A stretch of DNA of 64,000 nt from Bacillota bacterium (GTDB taxonomy: Bacteria; Bacillota; SHA-98; UBA4971): the NCBI GenBank assembly GCA_030024085.1, contig JASEJE010000020.1:129-64128 (forward strand). Reading direction: 5' to 3'. The position numbers were made by a program, and so were the translations under genes. The notes under the pieces were generated by a model. It ran no database searches, had not been told where the DNA came from, and saw only the letters and a list, made by a program, of their open reading frames with translations. Shown here piece after piece: positions 496 through 63,610 of the stretch (position 1 is its first letter; each line of letters begins with the position of its first letter).

Positions 496-704
496 GGTAG
501 GTCGCCACAAGTTCGCGCTCCTTTTCGGCGGGTGAGTCCTGTCCGGGGTTGCCGGTGCTGCCCTCCGGGGACGGCGCGCTTGCGGCGCGCCTCGTTCGAA
601 TTTGGCGCGCGGGCTAGCCAAATTCTCGACGCCCCGTCGTGCAAGCACCGGCAACTCCAACACCGTCAGGGAAGATGGCGCAGACTTATGGCGCCATACT
701 TAGG
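496..704 (+). repeat. MITE-like palindromic structured repeat, copy 1 (variant 1: GTAGATCGCCACAAGTTCGCGC...GGCGCCATACTTAG)
   Basis: ~209 nt intergenic element. Core GGTTGCCGGTGCTGCCCTCCGGGGACGGCGCG...CGAATTTGGCGCGCGGGCTAGCCAAATTC...GTGCAAGCACCGGCAAC forms a long imperfect hairpin. Its ends are complementary (CGCCACAAGTTCGCGC / GCGCAGACTTATGGCG). Related copies occur at 6979, 22420, 31649, 35314, 41163, 63491 and 43335. Confidence 0.8.
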
Positions 705-917
705 TTTGCCGTAGCGAACGAAGGCGAACCACGAGGTCGAACACAGGAACGCAGAGTGAGCGGGGAGCCACGTGTTTTACAACGCATGACGGAGTCCTGC
801 CACGACACTTCGACGGCCCGACAACGGCTTCTGGGCTTCGGCAGGATCCCGGATGCCAGGTACCAGGTGCCCCGGGTCCCAATACCCGATCATCAGATTA
901 CCGGAGGTGCAAGAAGC

Positions 918-1451
918 ATGCAGCTCAAAGGATCGAAAACAGAGGCCAATCTCAAGGCCGCGTTCGCTGGCGAGTCGCAGGCAAGGAACAAGTACACCTA
1001 CTTCGCTTCCGTCGCCCGCAAGGAAGGCTACGAGCAGGTCGCCGCCATCTTCGAGGAGACCGCGAGCAACGAGAAAGAGCACGCGAAGTTGTGGGCGAAA
1101 GCCCTCGGCATGATTTCCGACACCGCCGCCAATCTCGAGGAAGCTGCAAGAGGCGAGCACTACGAGTGGACCGCCATGTACCGGGAATTCGCTGAGACGG
1201 CGCGCAGCGAAGGCTTTGAGGATCTCGCGAAAGCCTTCGAGGAGGTCGCCGAGGTCGAGGAGGCCCATGAGAAGCGTTATCGCGCACTTCTCCAGCGCAT
1301 CCACAGCGCGACGGTTTTCCGCCGCGACCGCCCCATCAGGTGGCACTGCAGGAACTGCGGGTACATCCATGAAGGCACCGAGCCACCGGAGATATGCCCG
1401 GCCTGCGCACACCCGAGGGCGTTCTATGAGCCTCTTGCCGAGAATTACTGA
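918..1451 (+). CDS. rbr: rubrerythrin
   Basis: 177 aa from ATG at 918, preceded by GGAGGTG. N-terminal ferritin-like diiron domain ([23 protein letters not shown]...EKEHAKLW) plus C-terminal rubredoxin-type CxxC...CxxC ([12 protein letters not shown]...CPACAHP). The ORF-track 5' extension (639-917) reads through the repeat and is not credited. Confidence 0.9.
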
Positions 1452-1491
1452 GAGCTTCCGGTGAAACAGAAAAGCAAGGATGCTGATGGGA

Positions 1492-1524
1492 GGGACTGCG
1501 CTTTCGGGCGCGGTCCCTTCTTTG
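1492..1524 (+). terminator. intrinsic terminator downstream of rbr
   Basis: GGGACTGCGC-tttcgg-GCGCGGTCCC stem-loop followed by TTCTTTG. Confidence 0.55.
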
Positions 1525-1619
1525 TACCTTCCCACGGCTCATGTGATCGTCCCGGGTGCGATTTTTCTGTGCGAGGGGGACAGTTTCGGCAGGAGAAGCC
1601 CCCAGAGCCGGCGAAGATA

Positions 1620-1633
1620 TGTAACCGGCTACA
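1620..1633. promoter_or_regulatory. LacI/CcpA-family operator-like palindrome TGTAACCGGCTACA upstream of rbsR
   Basis: Near-perfect 14-bp palindrome matching the generic LacI-family/cre pattern TGTAAnCGnTTACA. A second, half-conserved site TGTAACCCATTGCA lies at 1686-1699 and overlaps the rbsR start. Confidence 0.45.
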
Positions 1634-3856: not shown

Positions 3857-3862
3857 GGTCTT

Positions 3863-6978: not shown

Positions 6979-7170
6979 CTAAGTGTGAGTTCAGAAATCC
7001 GTGCCGGTTTGGGAGAGGATTCCGGGTTGCCGGTGCTTGCACGACGGGGCGTCGAGAATTTGGCTAGCCTTAAGCGCCAAATTCGAACGAGGCTCACCGC
7101 ACGCGCCGTCCCTGGAGGGCAGTACCGGCAACCCTGGAAAAGTGGCGGTGATTTCTGAACCCACACTTAG
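6979..7170. repeat. MITE-like palindromic structured repeat, copy 2 (variant 2, TIR CTAAGTGTGAGTTCAGAAATC / GATTTCTGAACCCACACTTAG), inside the rbs operon
   Basis: Same hairpin core as copy 1 in the opposite orientation, with ~21-bp near-perfect terminal inverted repeats. Located between rbsD and rbsB. Confidence 0.8.
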
Positions 7171-7185: not shown

Positions 7186-8163
7186 GTGTTGCCCGGTGTC
7201 ACAGATGTCGTCAGTGTCTCGGTGCCGTGCTCCCAAATCTTACGCGAAAGGCAGGTCAGTCACATGAAGGCGTCTAGAATCCTTGTGGCCATTCTGTGTG
7301 TAGCCCTTTTCGCAACCCTGACAGGCTTTACGGCAGCGGCGACGAAACCGAAGGCAGGTCTTGCCATATCTACGCTCAACAACCCGTTCTTCGTGGACCT
7401 CAGAGACGGGGCGCTCGAGGCAGCCGCCAAGGTTGGAATGGAGGTCAACGTGGCGGACGCCCAGAATGACCCCAACAAGCAGCTCAGCCAGGTCGAGAAC
7501 TTCATCCAGGAACGCGTTGATATAATCCTGGTCAACCCGTGCGACTCTGCGGCTATCGTGCCCGCGATAAAATCGGCCAACGCCGCCAAGATACCCGTGA
7601 TCACGGTGGATAGGGGAGCCGACGGCGGCAATGTGGTATGCCACATCGCGTCCGACAACGTCGAAGGCGGGCGGATGGCCGCCGAGTACCTCGCGAAGCT
7701 CCTCAACTACAAGGGCAGGGTCGTGGAGCTCGAAGGCATACCCGGAACCTCGGCCGCGAGGGACAGGGGCAAGGGCTTCAACGAGATCATCAAGAAGTAC
7801 CCCAACATCCAGGTGGTGGCGAGGCAAGAAGCCGGGTTCGACAGGGCCAGGGGCATGACTGTCATGGAAAACATCCTCCAGGCGCAACCCGCCATCGACG
7901 GGCTCTTCTGCCACAACGACGAGATGGCTCTTGGCGCCCTGCGCGCCATCGAGGCCGCCGGCCGTCTCTCGGCCGTCAAGATCGTTGGGTTCGATGCGAC
8001 CGACGATGCCGTGAAGGCCGTGAAGGAAGGCAAGATGGCAGCCACGGTCGCCCAGAAGCCGCGAACCATGGGAGCCATCGCAGTAGAGACGGCCAGGAAG
8101 GTGCTTGACGGTGCAAGCGTTAACGAGTTCATACCTGTCCCGCTCGAGCTTGTCACGAAATAG
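7186..8163 (+). CDS. rbsB: ribose ABC transporter substrate-binding lipoprotein/periplasmic protein
   Basis: Probable start at MKASRILVAILCVALFATLTG (~7264), giving a signal peptide. Type-I periplasmic binding fold motifs (INNPFFVDL...ILVNPCDSAA...FDATDDAVKAVKEGKMAATVAQ). The ORF-track 5' end overlaps the repeat. Confidence 0.9.
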   Translation: MLPGVTDVVSVSVPCSQILRERQVSHMKASRILVAILCVALFATLTGFTAAATKPKAGLAISTLNNPFFVDLRDGALEAAAKVGMEVNVADAQNDPNKQLSQVENFIQERVDIILVNPCDSAAIVPAIKSANAAKIPVITVDRGADGGNVVCHIASDNVEGGRMAAEYLAKLLNYKGRVVELEGIPGTSAARDRGKGFNEIIKKYPNIQVVARQEAGFDRARGMTVMENILQAQPAIDGLFCHNDEMALGALRAIEAAGRLSAVKIVGFDATDDAVKAVKEGKMAATVAQKPRTMGAIAVETARKVLDGASVNEFIPVPLELVTK

Positions 8164-22392: not shown

Positions 22393-22419
22393 TTCACATC
22401 TCCCTTCCCTCTCCACGCC

Positions 22420-22550
22420 AAGTGTAAGTTCAGAGATCCTTGCCACTTTTCCGGGAGTTGCCGGCGTTGCGCTCCGGGGACAACCCGCGCTATTCTTCAG
22501 GTCCCGTTGAGCCCCCGGGACCGGGGATCCGGCAGCCCGAAGCACCGCTG
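22420..22550. repeat. MITE-like repeat, copy 3 (degenerate or truncated)
   Basis: Begins like variant 2 (AAGTGTAAGTTCAGAGATCCTTGCCACTTTTCCGGGAGTTGCCGGCGTTGCGCTCCGGGGAC) then decays; ~130 nt. Lies between the deoB stop and the udp start. Confidence 0.6.
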
Positions 22551-26489: not shown

Positions 26490-27050
26490 TTGTCTGGCGG
26501 AGAGACTCCTGGCCTTGGCCTTTGAGCGTGCAGTCCCCGGAGGACCCGTGATGTACGGAACGGGTAGGGCAGAAAGAGTGACGCACGTCACGCTTCGCCT
26601 TGCATGCGTGACGCAGGGAACGGGTAAGGGCCGGAACAGTGATGTACATCACTGGATGGCTCTCAATGATGACGTAGGGAACAGCTAAGGAGGGACCCGT
26701 GACGTGCGTCACTGGCCCCGCTTCGACGAGTGACGTAGGGAACACTTCGTGGAGAACCCGTGACGTGAGGAACGGGTGAAGCGGCAAGGATGATGTGCGT
26801 CACCGGTAGGCTCCTGTTGCGTGATGCGGGGAACGGGAAGGACGCGACGAGTGACATGCGTCATCTTTCCCCTTGCATGTGTGCCGTAGGGAACGGGTAA
26901 GGCCGGGACGGGTGATGTACGTCAATCGTTGGCTCCTAATGACGACGTAGAGAACGGGTGAGGAGCATTCCGTGATGTACGTCACTCGTCCACGTCACCC
27001 GTCAGCTCAAGTGACGGCACTACCAAAAGGTCCGTATGTGGCAGAGCAAT
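26490..27050 (+). repeat. complex 60-bp-periodic tandem array, element A (conserved flanks plus ~8 units)
   Basis: Each unit has a 22-mer GTGACGTAGGGAACGGGTAAGG and a 14-bp palindrome GTGACGYRCGTCAC, spaced every 59-61 bp (22-mers at 26548, 26608, 26668, 26731, 26761, 26821, 26881, 26940). Spacers between units are themselves related to one another. Inverted copy at 43398..43995. Confidence 0.8.
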
Positions 27051-31547: not shown

Positions 31548-31648
31548 AGCGCGACGCCTCGTCGCGGTGCCCAGCGCCCCGCCGGGTGCCGCATGCCTGT
31601 CGTCGCTCCCTCCACTCCCAGGTTCTCCTCCAGGTCTCTCACAGTTAA

Positions 31649-32603: not shown

Positions 32604-32643
32604 CAGTGTCTATCCGTGGGATACTCTCATCGTAGACCGCCTC

Positions 32644-33440: not shown

Positions 33441-33470
33441 AGGCGCGAGAAGGAGCGAGCAATAAGAACT

Positions 33471-33498
33471 AGGGGGCGCCCCATAGATCGCCCCCGTG
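33471..33498. terminator. GC-rich hairpin between convergent genes (GGGGGCG-ccccatagat-CGCCCCC)
   Basis: Lies between the RelE stop (33440) and the DUF3794 gene stop (33572). No strong U-tract. Confidence 0.35.
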
Positions 33499-35323: not shown

Positions 35324-35497
35324 AAGTTCGCTCCGGTGTTCCAGCGAATTCCGGGTTGCCGGCGTTGCGCTCGGGGGACGACGCCCTTGCGGGGCGCCTC
35401 GCTAGATTTGGCGTTCAGGCCTGCCAAATCTTCAACGCCCCTCGCGCAAGCACCGGCAACCCCTGGAAAAGTGGCAGTGATCTCTGAACTCACACTC
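35314..35497. repeat. MITE-like repeat, copy 5 (variant 2-like 3' end CCTGGAAAAGTGGCAGTGATCTCTGAACTCACAC)
   Basis: Same hairpin core. Immediately upstream of the DUF3794-LysM gene. Confidence 0.75.
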
Positions 35498-35686
35498 TGG
35501 GCCCGGCGCCTGATCCGCTCGATCACAGAAGGGACCTCCGGCGTTTTCGCCAGGGTCCCTTCCAACTGCGTTGCGCTGCGTTGCGGGCAAGACGCTCTGC
35601 CCGGGTACGGCGCCAGAAGCTTTGGCCACTTTACCAGGCGGAATCAGGGTTCGCAATCAGGGCCCGCGTTGTTCGCGGTAATCGCC

Positions 35687-37129: not shown

Positions 37130-37151
37130 AGTGGGGGCTAGCCTGTTGCAG

Positions 37152-38786
37152 CTAGCCTTTAGGCGCCGGACAGGCGGGGATCTGGATGACCTGGCCCACC
37201 TGGAGGTTCTCCGGCTGGATGCCCGGGTTTGCCTGGATTATCGCGGCCACCGTCGTGTTGTACTTTCGCGCCAGGGACCAGAGCGTATCACCCGGCTGGA
37301 TGGTCACCATGACGATCGTCGGCTGCGGACACGGCACCTCCGGCGGCTTCACGGCCACCACGGCGACCACCACGTTGAGCTGCACGGGCTCGGTGACCTT
37401 GGCGAACACGCTCACCAGGACCTTCGCGGTGAACCGCCTGTCTTCGACCACCTCGAAGTCCACGTGCTCGATGGCAACGCGCGTCTCGGCCAGGAAGCCC
37501 TCCTGCGTGCCGGGCACCTCGACCACCTGGGTGAACTTGAGGCGGTGCGACATGTGGTGCACCGGCTGGTCGCCCTCGGGGGTCTGCGCCACGTAAAGCG
37601 TCTGAAGCTCGACAACGCCCTCGACGATGACCTTGCCGTCGATGATCCTGTAAGACGCCTCTTTGACAGATGTGTCGATCCTGAGGACGCGCTCGATGTT
37701 GGGCTTCTCCCTCGGCACCTCCAGGGTCTCCTTGAGGATCGTCTGAACCGTGTCCTCGCCGATGACGTCCTCCACGCGGAGCAGCCTCTTCTCCACGTCC
37801 AGCACAGTGCTCTTGGACGTCACCTCGGTGACGACCTCGAGCTGCCTGACGACAGTCACCTTCGCGGTCAGCTTGAGCACCACGTCCACGCTGACCGTGC
37901 GGAAGTCAAGCTCGCTAAAACTCACCGCCTCGAGCACGAGCCGCACCTGAGCCCGCATGCCCACAGCCGCCCCGGGCACCTCGATGACCTGCGAGAACCG
38001 GAGCTGGGTCGAGAAGAAATGCACCGGCAATCTCGGCAGGTAAGGATCGTGAGGCACCGCCGCGTACAGCACGTCCACGTCGATCAGGCCCTCGGCTACC
38101 ACCTGACCGTCGAGCACCTGGACGTCCGTCAGGCGAGGTTTCGCCTCCGCACTGATGACAGATTCGATGTCCGGTTTCTCCGGCGGCACCGTGAGCCTCC
38201 CGCTGACGAGAGCCTGTGCCTGCGCCTCCCCAACGACATCCTCGACCTTCAGAAGCTCCCTGGCCACCTGCAGGTCTGGCGGGCCGGTGACCTCGGTCAC
38301 CACCTCGAGCTGTTCGGTCTTGGTGACCTTGACAGCGGCTGACAGGACGAGCCGCACGTCCAGAGTGCGCACGTCAACCAGATCGAATGCCACGTCGTGG
38401 ATGTCCACCTCGACAAAAGCGTTCATCGAGGGATCCGTGCCCGGCACCTCGGCGATGACTTCGAAGGATACATCCTGCTCAAGGAGTTGCACCGGCTGGG
38501 TGCCGGCGGCCACCCGTGCCACGTAGAGCACCCGCACCCTGATGGTGCCCTCCACGAGAACTTTGCCCTTTATGAGCTGGAATGAACTTGTGAGGACATC
38601 TGCATCGACGCTGATGATCTTCTCGGCGGTAGGCAGGTTCTCAGGGATCTTGAGCATCTCGCGCAGCACCTTGCGCGCCGTGGTTTCGCCGACGACCTGT
38701 TCGACCTTGAGGAGCTCCTCCTTGAGCTCGACACCCACAGCCATCTCCTCTCCCCCTTTCTCGTGACAGGCATGAAACCAGTACAC
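37152..38786 (-). CDS. multi-repeat DUF3794 protein with C-terminal LysM domain
   Basis: Four DUF3794 repeats plus LysM (IQPGDTLWSLARKYNTTVAAIIQANPGIQ). Stop is 22 nt from the next DUF3794 gene start. Confidence 0.75.
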   Translation of the reverse strand: MYWFHACHEKGGEEMAVGVELKEELLKVEQVVGETTARKVLREMLKIPENLPTAEKIISVDADVLTSSFQLIKGKVLVEGTIRVRVLYVARVAAGTQPVQLLEQDVSFEVIAEVPGTDPSMNAFVEVDIHDVAFDLVDVRTLDVRLVLSAAVKVTKTEQLEVVTEVTGPPDLQVARELLKVEDVVGEAQAQALVSGRLTVPPEKPDIESVISAEAKPRLTDVQVLDGQVVAEGLIDVDVLYAAVPHDPYLPRLPVHFFSTQLRFSQVIEVPGAAVGMRAQVRLVLEAVSFSELDFRTVSVDVVLKLTAKVTVVRQLEVVTEVTSKSTVLDVEKRLLRVEDVIGEDTVQTILKETLEVPREKPNIERVLRIDTSVKEASYRIIDGKVIVEGVVELQTLYVAQTPEGDQPVHHMSHRLKFTQVVEVPGTQEGFLAETRVAIEHVDFEVVEDRRFTAKVLVSVFAKVTEPVQLNVVVAVVAVKPPEVPCPQPTIVMVTIQPGDTLWSLARKYNTTVAAIIQANPGIQPENLQVGQVIQIPACPAPKG

Positions 38787-41029: not shown

Positions 41030-41162
41030 CGCACACCCCTCCCTTGTGGTCCTCCGTCCGCCGCGCGCGTGTGCGTGTGCCCGTGTGTGCGGAGCGCCGC
41101 CGCGAGGCGCGGCCAGGCGCCGCCACGTGCCGTCAAACTTCGTCAGATGTCTCTAAGTAGAT

Positions 41163-41364
41163 CGCCAGAAATCCGCGCTGCTTTTCAGCGTGCAGGGGCT
41201 CTCCTGGGTTGCCGGTGCTTGCACTCCGGGGACGGCGCGCTCGCGGCGCGCCTCGTTCGAATTTGGCGCACGGGCCAGCCAAATTCCAGGCGCCCCGTCG
41301 TGCAAGCACCGGCAACCCTACCACACTCAAGAAAAACGCCGAAGACTTCTGGCGCCATACTTAG
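41163..41364 (+). repeat. MITE-like repeat, copy 6 (variant 1; TIR CTAAGTAGATCGCC...GGCGCCATACTTAG)
   Basis: Full-length copy between the epimerase start and the GH18 gene stop. Flanked by ATGTC on both sides (possible target-site duplication). Confidence 0.8.
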
Positions 41365-41389
41365 ATGTCGCCCGATTCGGCAGATGTCG

Positions 41390-43177
41390 TCAGGCGGGCA
41401 GGAGGGAGTCACGGAGGGCTTTGAACCTCGTCCTGAAGGCATCCCACACCAGGGGATCCTCGTCCCCGAGATCGGCTATGGCCAGCCCCGCCAGGTTGAA
41501 CTTGAGGACGAGATCGACGTAACTCGCGACACTCGTCGCGTCCTCGAAGAACACCGTATGGTTCACCCGGAAGGACCTGTACCTGAACGCGCAGGCGCCA
41601 CCAGGCTCGGTGCGGACCACTGAGGGCTTGTAGATGTCCAGGATGTTAGCTGTCTCCGAGTACGCGCGGCGCATCGGCGGGGCGCCGGGCGCTGCCGAGA
41701 AGTCAACGCCGAAGAGCGGGACCCCGAGGACCATCTTCCATGGCGGCACGAGACGAACCATGGCTTTGAGGACGGCGCGGGCCCGGGCCGGAGATGCGGG
41801 CGGCGCTGGCACGGCCAGGCGCTCGGGCCCCTCGTGCAACCGCACGATAATCTGCCTTGCCACCCTGGCAATCTCATGGTACTCGAGTGGACCTGTGCCG
41901 ACAGCCTCGCCCTCTGGCCGGGGTGCGGGTGCCGGGATATCGAGGCTGAGATCCCGACCGTCGCGCTCGAGCACGGACGCAAGCTCACGCACAAAGGAGG
42001 TGAAGGCGTATGCGTCCCGGGGTCCCGGAGCGCACACCGAGAGAACGACACCGTGGGCGCGGCTTCGAGCCGCTGCGGCGGCTATGCCCTTTATGGCAGC
42101 GCGGCGTGCGGAGGCGTCCATCAGCACCTCATCGAGGGGTGCCCATTGTGCTCCTTCACTACCGTGGTCGATTGCAGGCGCGGTATCCGTGTCACACCTG
42201 CTCCCGCTGGCGCTTTCGCGCCTGCCTCCGCCCTCGTGCCTGCTATCTCTCTCGCGTCTCAACTCGCTTTCGCCGTCGTATCGGCCGTCGCCATGGCTCT
42301 CTCTGTCGCTTTCGGCCCCTCTCCCGCGCCCATGCCCACGCTCGCGCCCATACTCTCGCTCACGCTCACGCTCACGCTCACGCTCACGCGCCTGCTCACT
42401 GTGCTCGTCAGCGCCGCTCCTGCCCGTGCCCGTACCCATGCCCCTGGCGCCGCCCGCGCCCCTGCTCCCGTTCCCGCTCCTGCTCCCGTTCCCGCTCCTG
42501 CTCCCGTTCCCGCTCCTGCTCCCGTTCCCGCTCCTGCCCATGGCCGCGCCCGGGCGGGCGGCCATGGGCGGGCGAGGGTGCGGGTCGATGGAGACCACCG
42601 GGAGCACCCGGATGTCGGCCAGCGACGCGAGGGCCGTGACCCTCTTGACGGGCTCCCCTATGATCGTGCCGTCGGCATTCAGGGTGAACCAGCGGGGGGC
42701 CACCGCGGAAATGGACGCCAGGTGGTGCTCGTAGCAGTTCCAGGATCTCTCACCGCCATCGCCTTCCGGAAGGTATGCGAGAAGGCGCGCGACCGGGATG
42801 TTGAGGCACTGCCCCTCCTGGATTTCGGGATCCGGAAGCCGGTTGGCCTGGAGAAGAAGCTCTATGGGGATGTTGTGCTTCCTCGCGACGTGGGCGATGG
42901 TTTCGCCACGGGCCACAAAGTGCCTCACTACCGGCCTTGCAAGCCCGGAGCGGAGCACCGCGAATACCTCGTTGCCTGCGATCCCGTCCACCCGGAGGCG
43001 ATGGGCCTTTTGCAGGTCCCTCACTGCGTCCTTGGTCAGGATGCCGAAGACGCCATCTATCTCACCGGCATAATAGCCCAGGCGCGCAAGCCGCTCCTGC
43101 AGCAGGGTCACGTCGCGACCCCTCATCCCGGAGCGGAGAATCCGCCTCCACGGGTTTTCGCCCTGGGACTCAGCCAT
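41390..43177 (-). CDS. peptidoglycan-binding (PG_binding_1) + LysM + GH18 chitinase-fold protein, SleL/YaaH-like cortex-fragment lytic enzyme candidate, with microsatellite-encoded insert
   Basis: N-terminus LLQERLARLGYYAGEIDGVFGILTKDAVRDLQ (PG-binding), LysM (RHFVARGETIAHVARKHNIPIELLLQANRL), then a GH18-like beta/alpha-barrel. Central (SGNGSR)x4 and (ER)x6 insert encoded by 18-bp and 6-bp tandem repeats at ~42330-42545. Confidence 0.55.
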   Translation of the reverse strand: MAESQGENPWRRILRSGMRGRDVTLLQERLARLGYYAGEIDGVFGILTKDAVRDLQKAHRLRVDGIAGNEVFAVLRSGLARPVVRHFVARGETIAHVARKHNIPIELLLQANRLPDPEIQEGQCLNIPVARLLAYLPEGDGGERSWNCYEHHLASISAVAPRWFTLNADGTIIGEPVKRVTALASLADIRVLPVVSIDPHPRPPMAARPGAAMGRSGNGSRSGNGSRSGNGSRSGNGSRGAGGARGMGTGTGRSGADEHSEQAREREREREREREYGRERGHGRGRGAESDRESHGDGRYDGESELRRERDSRHEGGGRRESASGSRCDTDTAPAIDHGSEGAQWAPLDEVLMDASARRAAIKGIAAAAARSRAHGVVLSVCAPGPRDAYAFTSFVRELASVLERDGRDLSLDIPAPAPRPEGEAVGTGPLEYHEIARVARQIIVRLHEGPERLAVPAPPASPARARAVLKAMVRLVPPWKMVLGVPLFGVDFSAAPGAPPMRRAYSETANILDIYKPSVVRTEPGGACAFRYRSFRVNHTVFFEDATSVASYVDLVLKFNLAGLAIADLGDEDPLVWDAFRTRFKALRDSLLPA

Positions 43178-43334: not shown

Positions 43335-43400
43335 TCACCGGCAACCCAGCAGCCGCTGGAACGCCCGAAGGGATTAATGAACCCTCACTTAGTACCGCTC
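43335..43400. repeat. MITE-like repeat remnant (3' end only)
   Basis: CACCGGCAACCCAGCAGCCGCTGGAACGCCCGAAGGGATTAATGAACCCTCACTTAGT matches the variant-2 3' terminus CACCGGCAACCCTGGAAAAGTGGCGGTGATTTCTGAACCCACACTTAGT. Confidence 0.45.
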
Positions 43401-43995
43401 TGTCACATATGGAGCGCTGGCAGTACCGTCACTTGAGCTGACGGCTGACGTACGTCACGGGTTCGTCCCCAACCGTTCCCTACGTCACCGTTGATAGCCG
43501 TCCGCTGATGTACATCATCGGTCCCGGCTTTACCCGTTCCCTACGTCACACATGCGAGGGGTAGCGGGACGTGCGTCACTCGTCAGGCTCTTCCCGTTCC
43601 GCACGTCACCCATCGGGGGCCAATGGGTGACGTACATCATCGTTGCCGCCTCACCAGTTCCCTGCGTCACGGGTTCTTCATGAATCGTTCCATACGTCAC
43701 CCGTCGAAGCGAGACGAGTGACGCACATCACGGCTCCGTCCCCAACCGTTCCCTGCGTCACGCTTGAGAGCCATCCAGTGATGTGCATCACCGATGCGAG
43801 CCTTACCCGTTCCCTGTGTCACCCATGCAACGGGAAGAATGATGTATGTCACTCGCCAGGCTCTTCCCGTTCCATACGTCACGCATCGAAGCCAATTGCT
43901 GACGCACATCACTCTCCACCTTACCCGTTCCGTACATCACGGGTCTCCCGGGAACTACACGATTGAGGGCCACCGCGGCCAGGAGTCGCCGTGCC
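43398..43995 (-). repeat. complex 60-bp-periodic tandem array, element B (inverted copy of 26490..27050)
   Basis: CCTTACCCGTTCCCTACGTCAC recurs every ~60 bp (43467, 43530, 43590, 43650, 43745, 43805, 43865, 43925). Both ~50-70-bp flanks are homologous, in inverted orientation, to the flanks of element A. Confidence 0.8.
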
Positions 43996-44051
43996 GGACA
44001 AACCCGCAGACCTGCCAAACCGGATGGCACTTCGTATCTGACAGGGCAGTG

Positions 44052-45110
44052 TTACCCGTGCCTGGCCCGCCGCGTGCCGGGCAGCCGCAGCCTAGGGCGG
44101 GCGAGGTAGCGCGTGAACGCGGTCGCGGCTTCCCGGAGAGGGGAGATCAGTGCACCCAGGGCCGCGCGGGCTGCGCCGGGCCCCTGCCGGGCGGATTCAC
44201 CCCGGACAGGCGCGTGAGCACTTCCCGGCCTCTCCGTTGCCTCTGCCGCCTCCGTTGCCTCCATTTCCGCCGTTGCTTCTACGGCCTCCATTTCCGCCGC
44301 TGACCGGGCTGCCCCTACCTCCAGCGCCGACGTCGTTGCATCCATTTCCGGCTTTGACTCCGTCGCTTCCGCTGCGCTGTTCGTCCCCGTTGCCCCCTCG
44401 GTCTCCGTCGCCAGCTCCGACGGCGCCGCATCAGCGCTCTGGTCGCCGGAACGCCGCTCCCCCGCCTCGATCGCCGTGATCACTGAAAGCACTACGGTCT
44501 CCAGCACAAGCGCGTCAATGACGACGGTCGCGGTCACGCATATCCTGCCAGGCCCAGCGACGGTCCGCCGCACGCCATCAGGGTCCCTCGGGGCCCGCCA
44601 CTCGTCCGCCTCCCTGGCGTCACATCCATGCTCGGAGCCATCGTCCCCGCAGGCGGAGCGGCCGACGCCCGCCGTGCCAGCCACGCCCGCCGCGATCCAG
44701 GCGCTCTGACATCCCACGCTGAAGCGCCCCTCCACGGACATGCCCCGGCGGAGCGATACATCTTCAATGAGAGTCCGAAGGTCCTCTTCCCAGGAAAGCG
44801 CGCGCACCGGCCTTCCGTCTGACAGGCAGTAAGCCCACACAAGGAGCGTCGCGGATGCGAGGGCCGACCCGTCGAAGACATCCCACGACGGGTCGAGCAC
44901 GTCGATGGTCAGGCCCACGACTTCCCGCACGCCCTCCGGCGCCTCGTGCCACAGGCTGACCGTGACCTCGCGCGCGAGCCTGCACACGACCCGCTCCACG
45001 CGCAGCGTCTCCGTCCTCACGCTGATGCCGCCGAACCGGTCAGACCCGCCCAACCCCCTGCGCCTCCCCGGGCCGAACCCGGCCGTGCGCTGCGCTCCAG
45101 CGCATTGCAT
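44052..45110 (-). CDS. hypothetical protein (Ala/Glu/Thr-rich C-terminus); gene model uncertain
   Basis: Long ORF with no recognised domain. Central part (LWHEAPEGVREVVGLTIDVLDPSWDVFDGSALASATLLVWAYCLSDG) looks protein-like; the ends are low complexity. Confidence 0.3.
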   Translation of the reverse strand: MQCAGAQRTAGFGPGRRRGLGGSDRFGGISVRTETLRVERVVCRLAREVTVSLWHEAPEGVREVVGLTIDVLDPSWDVFDGSALASATLLVWAYCLSDGRPVRALSWEEDLRTLIEDVSLRRGMSVEGRFSVGCQSAWIAAGVAGTAGVGRSACGDDGSEHGCDAREADEWRAPRDPDGVRRTVAGPGRICVTATVVIDALVLETVVLSVITAIEAGERRSGDQSADAAPSELATETEGATGTNSAAEATESKPEMDATTSALEVGAARSAAEMEAVEATAEMEATEAAEATERPGSAHAPVRGESARQGPGAARAALGALISPLREAATAFTRYLARPRLRLPGTRRARHG

Positions 45111-46322: not shown

Positions 46323-48617
46323 CTACGGATCGACGACGACCGGGATCTGATCGAACTGAGTGACCTTCACGTCTATCCTGATGACGACCTTCTCCGTGAA
46401 ACTGCCGGTCGCAGGGTCGAACTCCCAGACGATGTTCTCGATGAACGAGTGGTCCTGCTCGTCCATGCCCTCGCGCACCGGCACGTCGGGGTTGATCGGA
46501 GTGACCTCCACCATCTCGCTGAACGGCAGGTCCTCCGCCAGATGGTGGACGAGATCGTCGGTGCCCACGTAGAAGATCTGCTTGTGCACGACGCCCTGCA
46601 CTATGACCTTGCCGTTCTTCACGATGGAGCCGATCTCGCTGATCCTGGCCTCCACGTCCACGATCTTGGTGGCCGGGAGGGTCTTCGTCTCCTCGATGAG
46701 CTTCTGCTTCGTGCCGTGCCCGACCACGAGGTCGGTCGCGATGACGGTACCGTATGGCTCCACGGCAACAGGTATCTGCTCCATCTCCGTGACCTTCACG
46801 CCAAGGAGCAGGATTATCTTCTGCGTGAGCGTCCCGGTGGCCGGGTCGAACTCGAACACGAGGTTGTCGACGATGGAGTGATCCTGCGAATCCATGCCCT
46901 CCTGCACCGGGAAGTTCGGGTTGAGTGGCGGCACCTCCACGAGGTCACTGAAGGCGATGTCCTCAGCGATGTGGTGAACGAGGTCGTCGGTGCCGACGAA
47001 GAAGATCTGCTTGTGCAGCGTGCCCTGGACGATGACCTTCCCGTTCTTGACGATGTGCTTTATCCTGGATATGCGCGGGATGATCTCCATCACCTTCGTA
47101 GCAGGGATTGTCTTCGTTTCTTCGATGAACTTCTGCTTCGTGGCCTCGCCAACCACCACCGCGGCCTTGATGAACGTGCCGTATGGCGAGAGTGCCACAG
47201 CGATCTGCTCCGTGTCCGTGACCTTTACCTGCAGCCTGAGTACGATCTTCTGGGTTAGAGCGCCGGTCGCAGGGTCGAACTCGAACACGTTGTTCTCGAT
47301 GACCGACATGTCGCGCTGGTTCATGCCCTCGGTGACCGGACGGGCCGGGTCGAGCGGCACCACGTCCACGAGCTCGCTGAAGTCCATATCCTCGGCAAGG
47401 TGGTGCTCCAGGTTATCCGTCCCGATGTAGAAGATCTGCTTGTGGACCGTGCCCTGGACGATGACCTTGCCGTTCTTCACGATGGACCTCACGTTGGTCA
47501 GGACGGGAACGATCTCCACTATCTTGATGGCCGGAACGGTCTTCGTCTCCTCCAGCAGCACCTGCCTCGTGCCGTGGCCGATGACCCTCTCCACCTTGAT
47601 CGTTGCCTTCTGGTCCACGATCTGTGTTATGTCAATCATCTGCGAGCCTCCTTTCAAGCTCCTGCCGGAGCTTTCTGGTGAGCGCCTGAGGAAGGCGGGC
47701 CCCGCCTTCCGCGCGTCCCCCCTTTCCTTGAGTTGTGGTCTATGCTGATCGGACGGGCGTAAACGCCCCTGGGTTTGATCGTTCGTGTGGGCACCGCGCA
47801 AGAACGTAGCGTCCTGCTCCCGACGGACTGCGCCTGAAAGGGCGACCGCGTCGTGGCCTCGCATGCCAGGCGGATGATCCCCCCGGAACTCAGGCAGCGG
47901 TCCAGAGCCGCCTGCAGGCGCGGGCGATGAGTCAGGGTCTGAGATGGCATGCGGGGTGGTGTCGCCACGGACCTCGTCTGGGCCGTGCCCGGTGCTCCCG
48001 ACACAGTGTCGAGAGCCTTCGGCGGCCGGTCGCGCCAGCCTGTCGCTTCGCCATGAGGTACCGGCGGCCAGGAAAAGGTGTCTCCGTTGTCGAGCTGGTA
48101 GGGAATTCCCGGGGTTGCCAGGCATTGCCGGGGCGCCGCCGATGGGTTCGGACTCGAGGGCAGCGGGCGCGCCATGAGGCCAGTCGGCCGGGCCGTCGGC
48201 GCCTGGGCTGACTGGGGAGAGGGTCTTGCCTGCGCCGTCGCGGTGCGCGTTGATCGAGGCAGGCGTGCTGGTACAGGTGGAAGCAGGGCTCGCATCTCGC
48301 GGATAGCGCGGGATGTCCGAGCCGCAGGGGGTGGGCGCGTCGCAGCGCGTCCTTCGCGCTCGCGAGGCATCGCTCGTCGCAACATCGCGGGCCACAGGTA
48401 TCGGCGCAGCCGCAGGAGGTACGTCGCGCCCTGTAAGCGAAGCCGTCCGGCGCCCTCGCCTGCGTAGCGACGTGCCGAGCACAGCCCCCATAACCGCAAG
48501 GGCCACGAAGACGATTATGATGAGCTGCCATCCGACGCCAAATGCCACAGCCGGTCCCTTCTCCCTGGCTTTCTCCCTATATCGTATTGACATCCCTGGC
48601 GAAGTGTGATGGGTCAC
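46323..48617 (-). CDS. DUF3794 protein with three near-identical ~130-aa repeats; N-terminal extent ambiguous
   Basis: Repeats VIGHGTRQVLLEETKTVPAIKIVEI... / VVGEATKQKFIEETKTIPATKVMEI... / VVGHGTKQKLIEETKTLPATKIVDV... Strong internal start MIDITQ at ~47639 with GAAAGGAGG. In-frame upstream ~1 kb encodes a putative TM helix (WQLIIIVFVALAVMGAVLG) plus a Pro/Arg/Ala-rich region. Confidence 0.7.
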   Translation of the reverse strand: MTHHTSPGMSIRYREKAREKGPAVAFGVGWQLIIIVFVALAVMGAVLGTSLRRRGRRTASLTGRDVPPAAAPIPVARDVATSDASRARRTRCDAPTPCGSDIPRYPRDASPASTCTSTPASINAHRDGAGKTLSPVSPGADGPADWPHGAPAALESEPIGGAPAMPGNPGNSLPARQRRHLFLAAGTSWRSDRLARPAAEGSRHCVGSTGHGPDEVRGDTTPHAISDPDSSPAPAGGSGPLPEFRGDHPPGMRGHDAVALSGAVRREQDATFLRGAHTNDQTQGRLRPSDQHRPQLKERGDARKAGPAFLRRSPESSGRSLKGGSQMIDITQIVDQKATIKVERVIGHGTRQVLLEETKTVPAIKIVEIVPVLTNVRSIVKNGKVIVQGTVHKQIFYIGTDNLEHHLAEDMDFSELVDVVPLDPARPVTEGMNQRDMSVIENNVFEFDPATGALTQKIVLRLQVKVTDTEQIAVALSPYGTFIKAAVVVGEATKQKFIEETKTIPATKVMEIIPRISRIKHIVKNGKVIVQGTLHKQIFFVGTDDLVHHIAEDIAFSDLVEVPPLNPNFPVQEGMDSQDHSIVDNLVFEFDPATGTLTQKIILLLGVKVTEMEQIPVAVEPYGTVIATDLVVGHGTKQKLIEETKTLPATKIVDVEARISEIGSIVKNGKVIVQGVVHKQIFYVGTDDLVHHLAEDLPFSEMVEVTPINPDVPVREGMDEQDHSFIENIVWEFDPATGSFTEKVVIRIDVKVTQFDQIPVVVDP

Positions 48618-50749
48618 GGATTGAAGGTCGCTCCCGTGACAACCGACACCGGGACGGGGCCGATCGTCCCGTCCACGATTCTCACGAGCGGGATCGTCTG
48701 CCGGGTGACCGTGGCTACCCTGGGGCCGGTGAGATCGGTGACGATGTCAAGCGGGCGCCGCGTCACGGTCCCGTCTTCCACAACGTCGACCAGGAACCTC
48801 TCCCTGGTCACAATGACGCCCGGCCCGATCACGTTCGTGACGACCTGGTACACCTGCTCCCTAGCGCAGCTCACGGTGACCAGGAGGATCACAAGCTGGT
48901 GAAAGACCGTGCCATTCTGGACTATCTTGACGATGACGTTCTCCACACGGGCGGAGGCGGAGATGGATGCGCCAGGCACGAGACCAGGGCAGTCCACGAG
49001 TGCGCTGAAGGGAAGCGTCTCCTCGACGTGATGGACGATGTCGTCGGTGCCGACGAAGAATACCTGCTTTATCACGACGCCCTCCACAAGGACGCTCTCT
49101 CCCATGACGCTGGCAGTAACGCCCTCGACGACGGTATCGACCGAACGTACCTTGATTGCGGGCACAGGCGCCGGGATAGTCCCCTCCAGGAGCAGCTGCT
49201 TCTCAGCCTGCGCCATCTCCGTCACCAGAATCCTCGCGAACTCGATGGTGATCGGGAGGACCCGCGTGATTATCTTCTCAACCAGAATCTGCGCGGCGCC
49301 CTCACCGATCACCTGCTGCACTTTCACCAGAAGGCCGTACGGTTCGACCGCAACGGGGATCTGGACCGTCTCCGTGACGGTCACGAAAATGTCGGCGATG
49401 ACTTTCTCCGAGATGTTCGTCCCCGTCTGGGCCGGGTCGAACACGACCGCCCGGACCTCGGGTCTCACGAACACGTTGAGGCCCGGCCTTGCGCCCGGCA
49501 CCTCCGCGAAATCACTGAATGGGATGGTGAAGGTCTCGGTAGCCTGCGTGCCCGCTGCGGTCACGTAGGTCACATCCTTGACTATGGCTCCCTGTATGAT
49601 CACTTTGTCCTCGATGGGGCGGGCCCGCACTCCATCGACCCGGGCAGTGATCCCGACGAGGCCCGTAGCCGGCTGTGAAAGGGTCACCGTTGTCTCCTCG
49701 AGTACCTCGGTTGAACCCTGCCCCAGCACGCGCTCTGTCTTGATGAGGGGACCTTCACCCATCGCCAGGACTATCTCGACGGTCTCCGTGACCTTCACAA
49801 AGACGTCGAGGAGCACCTCCTGGGCCACGAGGGTGCCCGTGGGGTCGAGGGAGAACGCCACGTCCCTGACATCCGGGTGCACCTGCACGTTCATCCCCGG
49901 CAGTGCCCCAGGGATGGCAGCGGTCACGGAGAAGTGCGCCACCACCCCCTGGTGGCGGTTCGAGCCGTCGGTGGCCACAAAGAATATCTGCTTCAGGATA
50001 TTGCCGCTCACCACGACCTCGCCAGGGTTCACCGTGATACCGGTGATCTCGGGCGTGGCGCGTATTTCCGTCACCTTCGTGGCCGGCACATCGAGCGTCA
50101 CCGTGCCGGTCTCCAGCACCTGTTCGATGGTCTCACCGACGACTGCTTCGGTGATCACCGGCGTGCCATACGGGTCCTCAGCGACGTGGATCTGGACGAA
50201 GTCGGTGACCACCACGTCCACATCGACGATCACCTTCTGGAAGATCTGGTTTCCGTCGGGGCTGAGCACCGCTATGACATTGAAGATGCTCGGATGCACC
50301 TGGACAAGCATCCCGGGCCTGGCGCCCGGGACGTCCACGAGGGCGGAGAAACGCATCTCTTCCGGGAAGTGGTGGACGATGTTGTCCTCGCCCACGAAGA
50401 AAACCTGCTTTGCAATGATGCCCTGGACTATCACCTTGTCGGGGATCACTTCAACGCCGACGCTTCTGACATCGGCGCGGATCTCCTTTATCTTGAGGGC
50501 TCTCATCGGCAGGGTGAATTGCACCTCGGGGCTGTTCGAAGTCCTCCCTGCGCTCGTCATGTGCTCGCCTCCCCCGGGCCTCCGCTCCGCTGCATGGATC
50601 GCACGCAGAGTGAGGGTTCGTTTCGCAAAGTCGGAGCATTTCTCCGTCCTCACCAGGCGCTCTGCTAAGTTCGGCAGCCTTACACCATATTTTATGAACC
50701 CGCGCCGTCCCTTGCCATCAGACTCCTGATACTGCCCTGTTACCTGCAT
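48614..50749 (-). CDS. multi-repeat DUF3794 protein (~5 repeats)
   Basis: Probable start MRALKIKEIRADV (~50506). Repeats such as VIVQGIIAKQVFFVGEDNIVHHFPEEMRFSALVDVPGARPGM. Stop overlaps the next DUF3794 ORF start. Confidence 0.7.
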   Translation of the reverse strand: MQVTGQYQESDGKGRRGFIKYGVRLPNLAERLVRTEKCSDFAKRTLTLRAIHAAERRPGGGEHMTSAGRTSNSPEVQFTLPMRALKIKEIRADVRSVGVEVIPDKVIVQGIIAKQVFFVGEDNIVHHFPEEMRFSALVDVPGARPGMLVQVHPSIFNVIAVLSPDGNQIFQKVIVDVDVVVTDFVQIHVAEDPYGTPVITEAVVGETIEQVLETGTVTLDVPATKVTEIRATPEITGITVNPGEVVVSGNILKQIFFVATDGSNRHQGVVAHFSVTAAIPGALPGMNVQVHPDVRDVAFSLDPTGTLVAQEVLLDVFVKVTETVEIVLAMGEGPLIKTERVLGQGSTEVLEETTVTLSQPATGLVGITARVDGVRARPIEDKVIIQGAIVKDVTYVTAAGTQATETFTIPFSDFAEVPGARPGLNVFVRPEVRAVVFDPAQTGTNISEKVIADIFVTVTETVQIPVAVEPYGLLVKVQQVIGEGAAQILVEKIITRVLPITIEFARILVTEMAQAEKQLLLEGTIPAPVPAIKVRSVDTVVEGVTASVMGESVLVEGVVIKQVFFVGTDDIVHHVEETLPFSALVDCPGLVPGASISASARVENVIVKIVQNGTVFHQLVILLVTVSCAREQVYQVVTNVIGPGVIVTRERFLVDVVEDGTVTRRPLDIVTDLTGPRVATVTRQTIPLVRIVDGTIGPVPVSVVTGATFNP

Positions 50750-61013: not shown

Positions 61014-61052
61014 GTCTGTCTCCTGGCCCTGTGCGCGGGCCGGCGTGACCGG

Positions 61053-61805
61053 CTATTTCGTGTGCTTGTCCGCGACCTTCGAAGCTCCGTAGGAATCGGG
61101 CTTGATCCTCGCGGCAAAGCCCGTCCCTGCCACCATGCCCACGATCTCGCGGATGAGGTCCCTCGTCTCCCCATTCTGCCCGATGTCCAGATGGATCTCC
61201 ACGTCGAGTTCTCCGTAGCCGTTCTTCGCCAGCTTCTCTGCGAGCTTGCTTGCGACCCCAAGGCTCTTCGCGGTCTCGTAGAAGATCCTCTGCCTCAGGC
61301 TGCGCCCCATCCTCTCCCTTTCCTTGGTATAGTAGTAACGGGCGCCCTTGCCGACCCTGTGGACGACGATGGCCGTGACGAAGCAGGCATCCTCACGAAG
61401 CTGTGAATCGGTGCCGATGATGAGCTTGTACGGGATGCCAGGCACCTCCTGCATGTAACTCATGATGTCTTTGAATGTGTCGTTGAAGCTGAGCTTGCCC
61501 TTGGTCGGGCTTATGAAAACCACTTTCCTCACCTTGATGTCTCGGGATGAATACTGGTCACAGCCAGAAGCTCGTCGGCCAGCCTGGCAAATTCGTCGAG
61601 GCTGAAGGTTTCCGCCCGCCGCTTCGAGTTCAGGCCCGCTTTCCCAAACGCCTCCCTGACCGCATTCTCGTCCGCGCCGGGAAGCCCCAGACCTGCCCCG
61701 CCGGCCATGACGAGCGCACGAAAGAGCGTCTTTCGTCTCATCCGGAACCCCGCCCTGACCACGGCGAAGAACACACCCTCGCTCGCGACCTCGACCGCAG
61801 GCCAC
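61053..61805 (-). CDS. DUF458 (YkuK-like, RNase H-fold) protein
   Basis: KLSFNDTFKDIMSYMQEVPGIPYKLIIGTDSQL...CFVTAIVVHRVGKGARYYY. True start probably GTG near 61532 (VRKVVFISP), giving ~160 aa that abut ksgA. Confidence 0.55.
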   Translation of the reverse strand: MACGRGRERGCVLRRGQGGVPDETKDALSCARHGRRGRSGASRRGRECGQGGVWESGPELEAAGGNLQPRRICQAGRRASGCDQYSSRDIKVRKVVFISPTKGKLSFNDTFKDIMSYMQEVPGIPYKLIIGTDSQLREDACFVTAIVVHRVGKGARYYYTKERERMGRSLRQRIFYETAKSLGVASKLAEKLAKNGYGELDVEIHLDIGQNGETRDLIREIVGMVAGTGFAARIKPDSYGASKVADKHTK

Positions 61806-62449
61806 TCGCGCACGAGGAGGCGGACTATCGCCGAGTCCACGTTCGGAACGGGGCGGAACGCCCCCGGCGGCACGATGCCGACGATCTCCGGAACGGTATG
61901 ATACTGTATAACTACAGAAAACGCCCCGTACCTCTTGGATCCCGGAGCGGCTACCATCCTCTCTGCAACCTCTTTCTGCACCATCACCACGATGCGCTCG
62001 AAAAGCCTGACCTCTTCAAGGAGCTTCAGGATGACGGGCGACGTGATGTAGTAAGGCAGGTTGGCGACCACCTTGCATTTCCTGTAAGAAAGTGTATCAA
62101 ACTGCACTAACTCTGTCAAGCCAAGGTCGAGGATGTTGGCGTGAACGATATCCACGTTTGAGGAACGGGCGAACTTCTCGCGCAGGACCTCGACGAGCCT
62201 GTCGTCGAGTTCGACGGCGATTACGTGCGCGGCCCGCTTCGCAAGGGCCTCCGTGAGGGTTCCGGTACCCGCTCCGACCTCGAGCACAGCATCAGCGCGG
62301 CCGAGATCGGCCGCGCTGACGATGACATCAAGGTGCGAGGGGTCCACCAGAAAATTCTGGCCGAGGCTTCTCCTCGGCCGAATCGAGGGGATACCCCTCA
62401 ACCTGCGGGCGCAGGGTTTTACGGTTCCAGAACGTACACCTTTACCCAT
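61529..62449 (-). CDS. rsmA: 16S rRNA (adenine1518/1519-N6)-dimethyltransferase
   Basis: LGQNFLVDPSHLDVIV...VLEVGAGTGTLTEAL...ANLPYYITSPV are the KsgA SAM-binding and NLPY motifs. Confidence 0.9.
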   Translation of the reverse strand: MGKGVRSGTVKPCARRLRGIPSIRPRRSLGQNFLVDPSHLDVIVSAADLGRADAVLEVGAGTGTLTEALAKRAAHVIAVELDDRLVEVLREKFARSSNVDIVHANILDLGLTELVQFDTLSYRKCKVVANLPYYITSPVILKLLEEVRLFERIVVMVQKEVAERMVAAPGSKRYGAFSVVIQYHTVPEIVGIVPPGAFRPVPNVDSAIVRLLVREWPAVEVASEGVFFAVVRAGFRMRRKTLFRALVMAGGAGLGLPGADENAVREAFGKAGLNSKRRAETFSLDEFARLADELLAVTSIHPETSR

Positions 62450-63447
62450 CGTTTTCCGTAGCGCAGGGCCTCCTCAACGGTCCCGAACAGCAAGTCGATC
62501 CTGTGCCCCTTGATGGCCGCGCCGACATCGGCGGCGATGGCGGGGCCGTACCCCTCGACATAGAGTCGTGTCCGCAGGGGGATGATCCTGGGGTCAACCG
62601 CCACGATACCCGGTTCAGCCTTCATCCCGATGGCCGTATAGCCATCGGCATACTTTCCGCAGCTTCTCGGGCCCGGCTCGTAGGCGGTCGCAAGCATCGT
62701 ATAAGAGTTGCGATACCGGAATGTCCCGCGAGATGTGTACAGTGTGCGCACCGGGTTCCGCGTGCCAACGGCGAGCAGCTTGGCAACGGGTTCCCGTAGC
62801 ACTCTGCTGGACAGCACCTTTTCGCTCACTGCCCTGCCGTCCTCGTATGTAACGAGCACTTTCTGCTCTCTTACGCCTTCCACGCCTGGACGGATGACCT
62901 TCGTCTCGCCCCGGTCCATATTGGAGTCGGGCCTGCGCTCGATCCGGTACGCCACCCGCACCTGCCTCGTGATGACCTCGGACACCACCCGGATGACCCT
63001 TATCTGCATCCCGGGGGTGAGGCCCACCTCCATACCGGGGCTCACCCTGTCATCGGGTCTCAGCAGGACCCCGACCTGGGCCAGCACGTGCTTCACGGTG
63101 GGGCCGGTGGAACGGCACTGGACAGTCCGGCCGTCCACGGTCACCGTGACGGGGATGGCCCGGGTAATAGTGATGGTGGCAGAACCATAGACCCGCTCTG
63201 ACACATCAGGGGATACCCCGTCTCCGTCGCTCAGCTCGACGCCGGCCTGCTTGAGAATGTCACTCACTCTGAGCGCAGTGGTAGCCACGGAAATGACCTC
63301 GTCATCGACGATCACCTTGACCTCCCTGCTGGCCCCGGCAAGGCCCGTCAGAAGAAGCACAACGGCACACACCACAAGCGCGATCTCTCTTTTGTGTTCG
63401 CCTAGAACCGACGCCCGCTCCCGCTTTTCACAGGGGCCAGTCGTCAT
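62419..63447 (-). CDS. yabE: YabE-like cell-wall-associated protein (DUF348 - G5 - 3D domains)
   Basis: N-terminal TM, G5-like repeats, C-terminal 3D domain (YTAIGMKAEPGIVAVDPRIIPLRTRLYVEGYG...DVGAAIKGHRIDLLF). Position upstream of ksgA as in Bacillus. Confidence 0.7.
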   Translation of the reverse strand: MTTGPCEKRERASVLGEHKREIALVVCAVVLLLTGLAGASREVKVIVDDEVISVATTALRVSDILKQAGVELSDGDGVSPDVSERVYGSATITITRAIPVTVTVDGRTVQCRSTGPTVKHVLAQVGVLLRPDDRVSPGMEVGLTPGMQIRVIRVVSEVITRQVRVAYRIERRPDSNMDRGETKVIRPGVEGVREQKVLVTYEDGRAVSEKVLSSRVLREPVAKLLAVGTRNPVRTLYTSRGTFRYRNSYTMLATAYEPGPRSCGKYADGYTAIGMKAEPGIVAVDPRIIPLRTRLYVEGYGPAIAADVGAAIKGHRIDLLFGTVEEALRYGKRWVKVYVLEP

Positions 63448-63490
63448 CTCCTCATCCTCCTTGCGGCATCACACCTGCTGCCCACCTGAG

Positions 63491-63610
63491 TGGATCGCCA
63501 CAAATTCGCGCTACCTTTCAGCGCGCAGGTCCTCGCCGGGGTTGCCGGTGTTGCGCTCCGGGGACGGCGCTTGCGGCGCGCGAGGATCAGGGTTGGCAGG
63601 TCTCACCGCA
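63491..63610 (+). repeat. MITE-like repeat, copy 7 (5' half of variant 1, truncated)
   Basis: TGGATCGCCACAAATTCGCGCTACCTTTCAGCGCGCAGGTCCTCGCCGGGGTTGCCGGTGTTGCGCTCCGGGGACGGCGCTTGCGGCGCGCG, then diverges. Lies upstream of yabE. Confidence 0.65.

Follow-up and report, generated by a model that had tools for sequence, protein, structure and literature searches.

What kind of sequence recurs, as palindromes of about 200 nt, between the genes of an uncultured Bacillota bacterium of the lineage SHA-98/UBA4971? The window analyzed here (the whole stretch of 64,000 nt, positions 129 to 64,128 of contig JASEJE010000020.1; 64% G+C) contains this repeat in five full copies; a further two are truncated and one is an end remnant, which amounts to about one copy per 8 kb. 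An earlier reading, made from the sequence alone and hereafter called the sequence-only reading, had proposed either a novel MITE family (miniature inverted-repeat transposable elements) or a family of structured RNAs, with CTAAGT...ACTTAG at the ends. The results below indicate that the family is very probably a non-coding MITE moved in trans, whose targets are CTAG-like palindromes with a central TA that is duplicated on insertion. To delimit it, a hidden Markov model was built from the five full window copies (nhmmer). These are imperfect palindromes of 190-212 nt over their whole length and gave nhmmer E-values of 1e-47 to 1e-63, far past chance. Homologous sequence lies at all eight sites that had been named; at the third (given as 22420-22550) homology was found at 22419-22487, and the remainder is not recognisably homologous. 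As had also been described, the window copies sit between ordinary genes and occur in both orientations. Position-specific counts place the boundaries precisely, with conservation falling to background exactly outside CTAAGT...ACTTAG.

To establish how widely the family is spread, GTDB species representatives were scanned with a 25-nt degenerate core pattern, which matched at least 70 stretches. Among the matches listed, 55 lie in one "Bacillota bacterium" metagenome-assembled genome (MAG) from a paddy-soil project (MAG107, JBLNDE01; PRJNA950955, PMC13001172), seven in UBA6811 (DKEX01), four in MAG-64 (JACIXY01), one in a Clostridia MAG and three in a bin that bears the label Betaproteobacteria and stems from MAG107's project. 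Over the window plus 0.53 Mb of such loci (0.59 Mb), nhmmer gave 149 non-overlapping matches, 72 of them full length, and the loci with matches come from at least four Bacillota/Clostridia MAG species. The abundance that the sequence-only reading had expected of a genome-wide search is thus seen as many copies in related genomes, and hundreds of copies per genome is a plausible extrapolation. The window and MAG107 are 95-97% identical over three loci. A scan of metagenomes with a degenerate pattern for the type A terminus (end types are described below) added 28 contigs carrying the element, mostly from one Joint Genome Institute (JGI) sample, with one from a second JGI sample and one a 675-kb bioreactor contig (UPAD01000003). 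PLSDB plasmids and GenBank phages gave no match, nor did IMG/VR viral contigs match the core or the terminus pattern. Long matches lie outside called genes in 92 of 100 cases, in all gene-orientation contexts. The family members in the bin "Betaproteobacteria MAG135" (JBLNCC01; loci L021, L062 and L068) sit on contigs of 63-66% G+C, one of which encodes a SpoIIE-like phosphatase domain; because of that domain, misbinning is likely for these contigs rather than cross-phylum transfer.

If a trans-acting transposase moved the element, by cut-and-paste or by copying, integration at the TA of a CTAG-like palindrome would duplicate the TA, and each copy would read C-TA-[AGT...ACT]-TA-G because of that duplication. 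Of 70 full copies, 56 have C...G as their outer bases, and the flanking dinucleotides are TA/TA in 33, most of the others being one transition off TA on one or both sides. Presence/absence polymorphism, which the sequence-only reading had anticipated for a mobile family, was found in loci L071, L015 and L040/L097. Locus L071, from another sample with ~97% identical flanks and the same RbsD protein, lacks copy c2 and has a single CTAG there: it reads GGACTC-TA-GTGGG, where the window reads GGACTC-TA-[188 nt]-TA-GTGGG (with longer flanks, GAGGACTC-TA-GTGGGATT in L071 and GAGGACTC-TA-[AGTGTGAG...CCCACACT]-TA-GTGGGATT in the window). MAG-64 (L015) is without the copy found in MAG107 at L030 844-1054; the difference in length equals the element plus 2 bp, and the dinucleotides at this site have drifted (AA vs TC/TG). 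A third site reads CTCC-TA-GATCC in MAG107 (L040) and CTCC-TA-AGTATGGCGCC... in a metagenome strain (L097). At a fourth, the CTAG at 44092-44095 is intact in the window and occupied by a family member's end in MAG107. Exact look-ups of other neighboring proteins yielded no further empty site: four proteins are not on record, and one led to a contig broken off within the element. The element consensus itself holds two internal CTAG sites, and nested insertions were found in both, with both junctions visible in one case (GGC-TA-[type C element]-TG-GCC) and the right junction visible in six further cases, at CCC-TA-GCAAGC or GGC-TA-GCCAAATTC. Small size, lack of transposase coding, terminal inverted repeats and a direct target duplication, together with dispersed and mostly intergenic copies, mobility and a long stem-loop, are among the traits summarised for bacterial MITEs (PMC3184786, PMC3049150), and each of these was found in this family.

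The target appears to be shared. At one C-TA-G site (L095 1022-1141 vs L058 4338-4546) the present MITE occurs in MAG107 and another element in the metagenome strain. The latter is a different, TA-flanked inverted repeat of ~118 nt (TA-TAGGTAACCAAGCTCGAAGT...), seen in one instance, and suggests independent use of this site by a second MITE family that targets TA.

A different target-site duplication, the ATGTC on both sides of copy c6, had been proposed from the sequence alone. ATGTC is indeed present on both sides but is offset on the left (ATGTC-TC-TA-AGT), and it forms part of a local AGATGTC / CAGATGTCGTCAG motif that is present also beside the empty c2 allele of L071. This offset and the motif beside the empty allele rule out ATGTC as the duplication; it is a pre-existing flanking motif, and the duplicated sequence is the TA within CTAG. 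The exact 13-mer CAGATGTCGTCAG occurs at window positions 7202-7214 and 41381-41393 (0.14 expected), in each case with a MITE copy 17-32 nt to its left. Because the empty allele L071 has it too, the 13-mer is part of the flank rather than the element, and it may be a regulatory motif.

TA duplication within CTAG is the signature of the IS630/Tc1-mariner group: IS630 prefers the TA inside 5'-CTAG-3' and duplicates it (PMC2170065, citing Tenzen and Ohtsubo 1991), and duplication of TA is general to the group (PMC2170065). From this target signature alone we infer that the mobilizing enzyme is a DDE transposase of IS630/Tc1-mariner type. The same kind of MITE could instead be moved by a DDE transposase from outside IS630 that also makes short TA-centred duplications at CTAG-like palindromes, as some insertion sequences (ISs) of the IS5 family (IS427-type) do. 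The TA/CTAG target is the sole mechanistic evidence and is not unique to IS630, and no IS630-family gene was seen in the loci or metagenome contigs. Against this, TA within CTAG is the classic IS630 target (PMC2170065) and nothing specifically indicates IS5, so that an enzyme of another family, though a real alternative, is unlikely.

Several observations weigh against a simple MITE moved by a TA-duplicating transposase. No transposase gene bounded by the family termini was seen in the window, the 70 genome loci or the 28 metagenome contigs (whole genomes were not covered). Typed terminus pairs 0.5-5 kb apart enclosed only nested or truncated MITEs, and nothing longer was bounded by termini; in the metagenome contigs, each of the 30 terminus matches is the end of a MITE. 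When the loci were compared all-against-all by BLAST, no multi-copy segment of >350 bp emerged, and all-against-all BLASTP of 199 open reading frames (ORFs) of 230-480 aa gave no IS-like paralogues. MAGs often lack insertion sequences. Flanks other than TA are inverted-complementary (CA...TG or TG...CA) in 7 cases vs 2.5 expected (p ~0.015) and directly identical in one case, and a pure target duplication does not predict the inverted-complementary excess. The element also has three subterminal arm types while its internal core is most conserved, the reverse of the usual MITE pattern, which is in part due to ascertainment, a core pattern having been used to fetch the loci. Finally, co-directional gene pairs show a weak orientation bias (25:11, p = 0.03).

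Full copies measure 184-228 nt, too short to encode a transposase, and shorter derivatives of 100-125 nt consist of the termini and the outer core stem only. The arms are inverted repeats over nearly their entire length and enclose a conserved stem (GGGTTGCCGGTG...CACCGGCAACCC), common to all end types and to the short variants, and two small hairpins (GGCGCGC-loop-GCGCGCC and GAATTTGGC-loop-GCCAAATTC) that give the otherwise symmetric element its orientation. Subterminal sequences are of type A (AGTAGATCGCCACAAGTTCGCGC... / ...GCGCAAACTTATGGCGCCATACT), type B (AGTGTGGGTTCAGAAATC...) or type C (AGTGAGGGTGCAGAAATGC...); written with the flanking TA, the family termini read TA-AGTAGATCGCC..., TA-AGTGTGGGTTCA... 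and TA-AGTGAGGGTGCA.... The ends AGTAGATCGCCA... and ...TGGCGCCATACT pair with each other, as do their B and C equivalents, and helices 1-2 are paired in 76-84% across 69 copies. The terminal variants and chimeric copies described earlier are real: the 69 full copies comprise 47 with A/A ends, 11 with B/B and 2 with C/C, plus several A/C and B/A chimeras. The hairpin with paired outer ends likewise holds, copy c1 folding as RNA at -117.8 kcal/mol (z = -6.8) into a structure whose ends pair and which has a long core stem with two hairpins inside. For the reverse strand the value is -108.5 kcal/mol (z = -5.5), and as single-stranded DNA the whole element forms a hairpin (-60.8 kcal/mol, z = -4.8).

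The core hairpin (GGGTTGCCGGTG...CACCGGCAACCC plus the two stem-loops) is common to the three end types, is kept paired by compensatory changes and shows stronger conservation than the termini; it may accordingly be selected for a separate function. It might be an inner transposase-binding site, by analogy with the inverted repeat/direct repeat (IR/DR) arrangement of some Tc1 elements, or a hairpin that the host exploits in transcripts, which the mild orientation bias might reflect. Alternatively, a hairpin-templated movement might copy the flanking dinucleotides. It is rather improbable that either selection on the core for its own function or such templated movement is at work; in the first case the family would go beyond passive parasitism, in the second a hairpin template would underlie its movement.

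The structured-RNA half of the original proposal would make the repeats non-coding RNA genes or modules, their hairpin selected as RNA (as an RNase III substrate, mRNA stabilizer or attenuator) and spreading secondarily. The very stable fold of both c1 strands fits this, as do the mild orientation bias relative to flanking genes (25:11) and the greater stability of the reverse strand in 48 of the 69 copies, and so do the pairing data: in a 69-copy alignment 84.5% of structure cells are paired vs ~40% with slid partners, and 36 pairs show double changes, including pairs of the central hairpins (GC to AU, UA to CG), which are not termini. Compensatory changes therefore keep the hairpin, as the sequence-only reading had supposed they might, but since the copies fall into few sub-families the covariation counts are not independent events. 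The strand comparison is less favorable. Mean fold energy is -100.0 vs -103.1 kcal/mol, a small difference in favor of the reverse strand, and both strands fold about equally well. The rare stem mismatches are strand-symmetric (51 G·T vs 49 A·C), and because these are equal there is no ongoing one-strand selection for wobble pairs. These two results argue against strand-specific RNA selection. The copies also stand in both orientations in tandem, convergent and divergent gene contexts. No Rfam match was obtained at gathering thresholds over the whole window or at E ≤ 1 on one copy; the repeats match neither Rfam nor a known IS. Simple consensus scans of two copies (c1 and c6) gave no promoter or terminator, and the suggestion that the element supplies these found no support in those copies. 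Target duplication, empty sites and nesting are mobility at the DNA level. RNA genes are accordingly a very improbable explanation, and we regard the hairpin as a property of the DNA palindrome with its long inverted repeats, not of a strand-specific RNA. Neighboring genes may nonetheless be affected, for example where the hairpin is carried in read-through transcripts.

It is also worth considering whether integration involves a true duplication at all. The element could have been inserted bluntly at the centre of a CYRG palindrome (the element then being AAGT...ACTT), or by site-specific recombination whose crossover core spans 2 bp. Arithmetically, insertion at CT^AG fits the clean empty site (CTAG -> CTA-AGT...ACT-TAG), and the excess of CA...TG flanks (5 copies) would simply be CCGG targets. 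The TG...CA flanks and the many one-sided variants are not better explained in this way, whereas the IS630-type model explains everything by a documented mechanism, and we know of no bacterial transposon family with long inverted repeats that inserts bluntly; we consider this route highly unlikely. Elements mobilized by HUH enzymes (IS200/IS605, REP/RAYT) make no target duplication, have no long terminal inverted repeats and insert beside a fixed tetra- or pentanucleotide on one side only, and such elements consist of short palindromic units of 20-40 nt or have subterminal hairpins. REP/BIME-like elements or IS200/IS605-derived palindrome-associated transposable elements (PATEs), moved as single-stranded DNA hairpins by a RAYT/TnpA enzyme recognizing the core hairpin, would fit the GGGTTGCCGGTG/CACCGGCAACCC stem being more conserved than the subterminal arms and common to all end types and short variants, the single-stranded hairpin of the whole element and the inverted-symmetric variation of its outermost positions (by hairpin-templated copying), but are a very improbable explanation: palindromic CTAG gains 2 bp symmetrically, the element is a palindrome of ~200 nt whose termini are inverted, its size is far above that of REPs, and no RAYT-like gene was seen beside any copy (the examined flanking genes are housekeeping; whole genomes were not searched).

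For a MITE moved at CTAG by a transposase in trans, recent activity can be assessed from related genomes. Presence/absence differences occur between genomes 90-97% identical and three UBA6811 copies are 98-99% identical, which argues for recent transposition, and the UBA6811 copies point to a recent burst. Copies c4, c5 and c6 are common to the window and MAG107 and are old, shared copies; the flanking dinucleotides of c5 (CG / CT) have decayed, also the mark of an old copy. MAG107 is without ~750 nt of the window (43338-44092 vs L037 4286-4349), including the second of the ~30-nt-unit arrays described below, and its junction joins the c7 core to the arm of a family member at the CTAG at 44092-44095. 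This looks like, and is consistent with, a deletion by recombination between two MITE copies. Other sequences have entered the copies in turn. The orthologue of window position 22427 in MAG107 (L018 5964-6073) carries a second repeat of ~105 nt (GACACCATTGAACTTCCCCAGTA...CATCAACAGTCTC) inside the arm of the c3 orthologue, flanked on either side by GYTCAG; the window lacks this repeat, which occurs also at L050 ~5950 and L051 ~105. In one metagenome contig (L087 68-1949) a MITE copy is split at model position ~63 by an insert of ~1.9 kb that encodes a 484-aa protein resembling, by eye, a group II intron reverse transcriptase/maturase (YADD-type motif) and not a transposase.

The sequence-only reading had likened the repeats to Correia and RUP elements, and the class is the right one: a mobile, non-coding, high-copy inverted-repeat element, also ERIC-like. 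IS630 and ISY100 share insertion into TA with TA duplication, but are autonomous elements of ~1.1 kb with a DDE transposase, whereas the present family encodes nothing. RUP, a MITE of Bacillota attributed to an IS630-family transposase (IS630-Spn1) acting in trans (PMC3049150, PMC3184786), is likewise non-coding and high-copy, lies mostly between genes, has terminal inverted repeats and folds with strong base pairing; it differs in being 107 bp long and AT-rich, with a partner IS that has similar ends, where the present family is ~200 bp, GC-rich and fully palindromic with three end types. Correia elements (CREE, Neisseria) and ERIC elements (Enterobacteriaceae) are inverted repeats of 100-160 bp with 5'-TA-3' flanks, present in hundreds of copies, with strain presence/absence differences and transcripts in which they form long hairpins (PMC3184786). 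The one copy per ~8 kb of the window is a density comparable to theirs. IHF sites and promoters are present in Correia elements, while nothing promoter- or terminator-like was detected in c1 and c6, and the family is set apart from Correia and ERIC by another phylum, another sequence, a strict CTAG context and modular A/B/C ends. Stowaway elements, plant MITEs derived from Tc1/mariner, also duplicate TA, are small with hairpin potential, form sub-families and nest into one another; they are eukaryotic, AT-rich and unrelated in sequence. RUP, Correia, ERIC and Stowaway elements are all hairpin MITEs flanked by TA, and the present family works in the same way.

The family is thus an ordinary kind of bacterial genome parasite, previously undescribed in this lineage and unsurprising to a specialist, and it opens no new mechanistic question. 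For uncultured, spore-forming, high-GC Bacillota from paddy soil, a bioreactor and other metagenomes, a group that has received little study, it adds a well-delimited, recently active MITE family whose defined target is the TA in CTAG. A density of ~1 copy per 8 kb explains many contig breaks in the host MAGs. The family marks strain-level polymorphisms and is useful for strain tracking, appears to drive deletions between copies, and is a landing site for nested MITEs and a group II intron. For annotation, it is a caution against calling hairpins of ~200 nt RNA genes.

Copies of the repeat family in the 64-kb window, c1 to c8, and one unoccupied target; coordinates of copies include the flanking dinucleotides
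Feature	Position	Strand	Form	Flanks and context
c1	494-702	+	full, type A ends; body 496-700; nhmmer 211.6 bits, model positions 2-208	TA at 494-495 and 701-702, within C493...G703; between two rubrerythrin genes
c2	6980-7169	-	full, type B ends, core inverted relative to c1; body 6982-7167	TA duplication at 6980-6981 and 7168-7169; between rbsD and sugar-binding-protein gene
c3	22419-22487	+	truncated or degenerate: B-type left end and start of core	
c4	31646-31856	+	full, type A ends; right end slightly rearranged (ATACTAACT-TA-AG)	target TTAA; common to MAG107
c5	35309-35498	+	full, B-like ends	between two SipL-domain genes; common to MAG107
c6	41154-41363	+	full, type A ends; body 41156-41361	TA at 41154-41155 and 41362-41363; common to MAG107
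c7	43336-43391	-	right arm and core stem of short type C variant; left arm missing	terminus ...CCCTCACT-TA-G
c8	63487-63590	+	left half only (model positions 2-103)	then unrelated non-coding sequence
CTAG target	44092-44095		unoccupied	in MAG107 (L037) a family member's end abuts exactly: …CCACT-TG-GGCGGGC

The genes adjoining the window copies are ordinary, encoding rubrerythrins, RbsD and a sugar-binding protein, an MrfA-like helicase, a DUF2284 protein, SipL/LysM sporulation proteins, a GDP-mannose-dehydratase-like epimerase and a GH18/peptidoglycan-binding protein, with no transposase among them. Beyond the half-copy c8, neither an ORF nor relatives of the sequence were found.

Other repeats lie near the copies. 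Two non-coding arrays of ~450-500 nt, mutually 77% similar, occupy window positions 26516-27010 (+) and 43400-43990 (-). In them, units of ~30 nt alternate, GTGAYGNRNGGAACGG... with the palindromic GTGAYGTRCGTCAC; the motif has 11 exact matches vs 0.02 expected. Each of the two terminates in the hairpin CCGTCAGCTCAAGTGACGG and is located upstream of a gene. MAG107 and metagenome contigs hold related arrays, often immediately next to a MITE (L053 2678-2843, L100 700-1177, L005 ~7933, L020 ~2537 and L039 ~66). With no Rfam match at E ≤ 1, the arrays could be regulator-binding-site arrays or repeated RNA. At 32560-33497, ~940 bp that contain two overlapping small ORFs (of 132 and 133 aa, neither with a Pfam match) are replaced in MAG107 by ~100 unrelated nt (L020 2536-2643), and this segment may be a small mobile or toxin-antitoxin-like cassette. 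Long minus-strand ORFs contain in-frame direct repeats of ~459 nt and 429 nt at 35700-38700 and 46324-47581 (also ~49000-50450). Those in the ORFs at 33572-37129 match SipL/SPOCS domain repeats, and the in-frame repeats are protein-domain repeats unrelated to the MITE.

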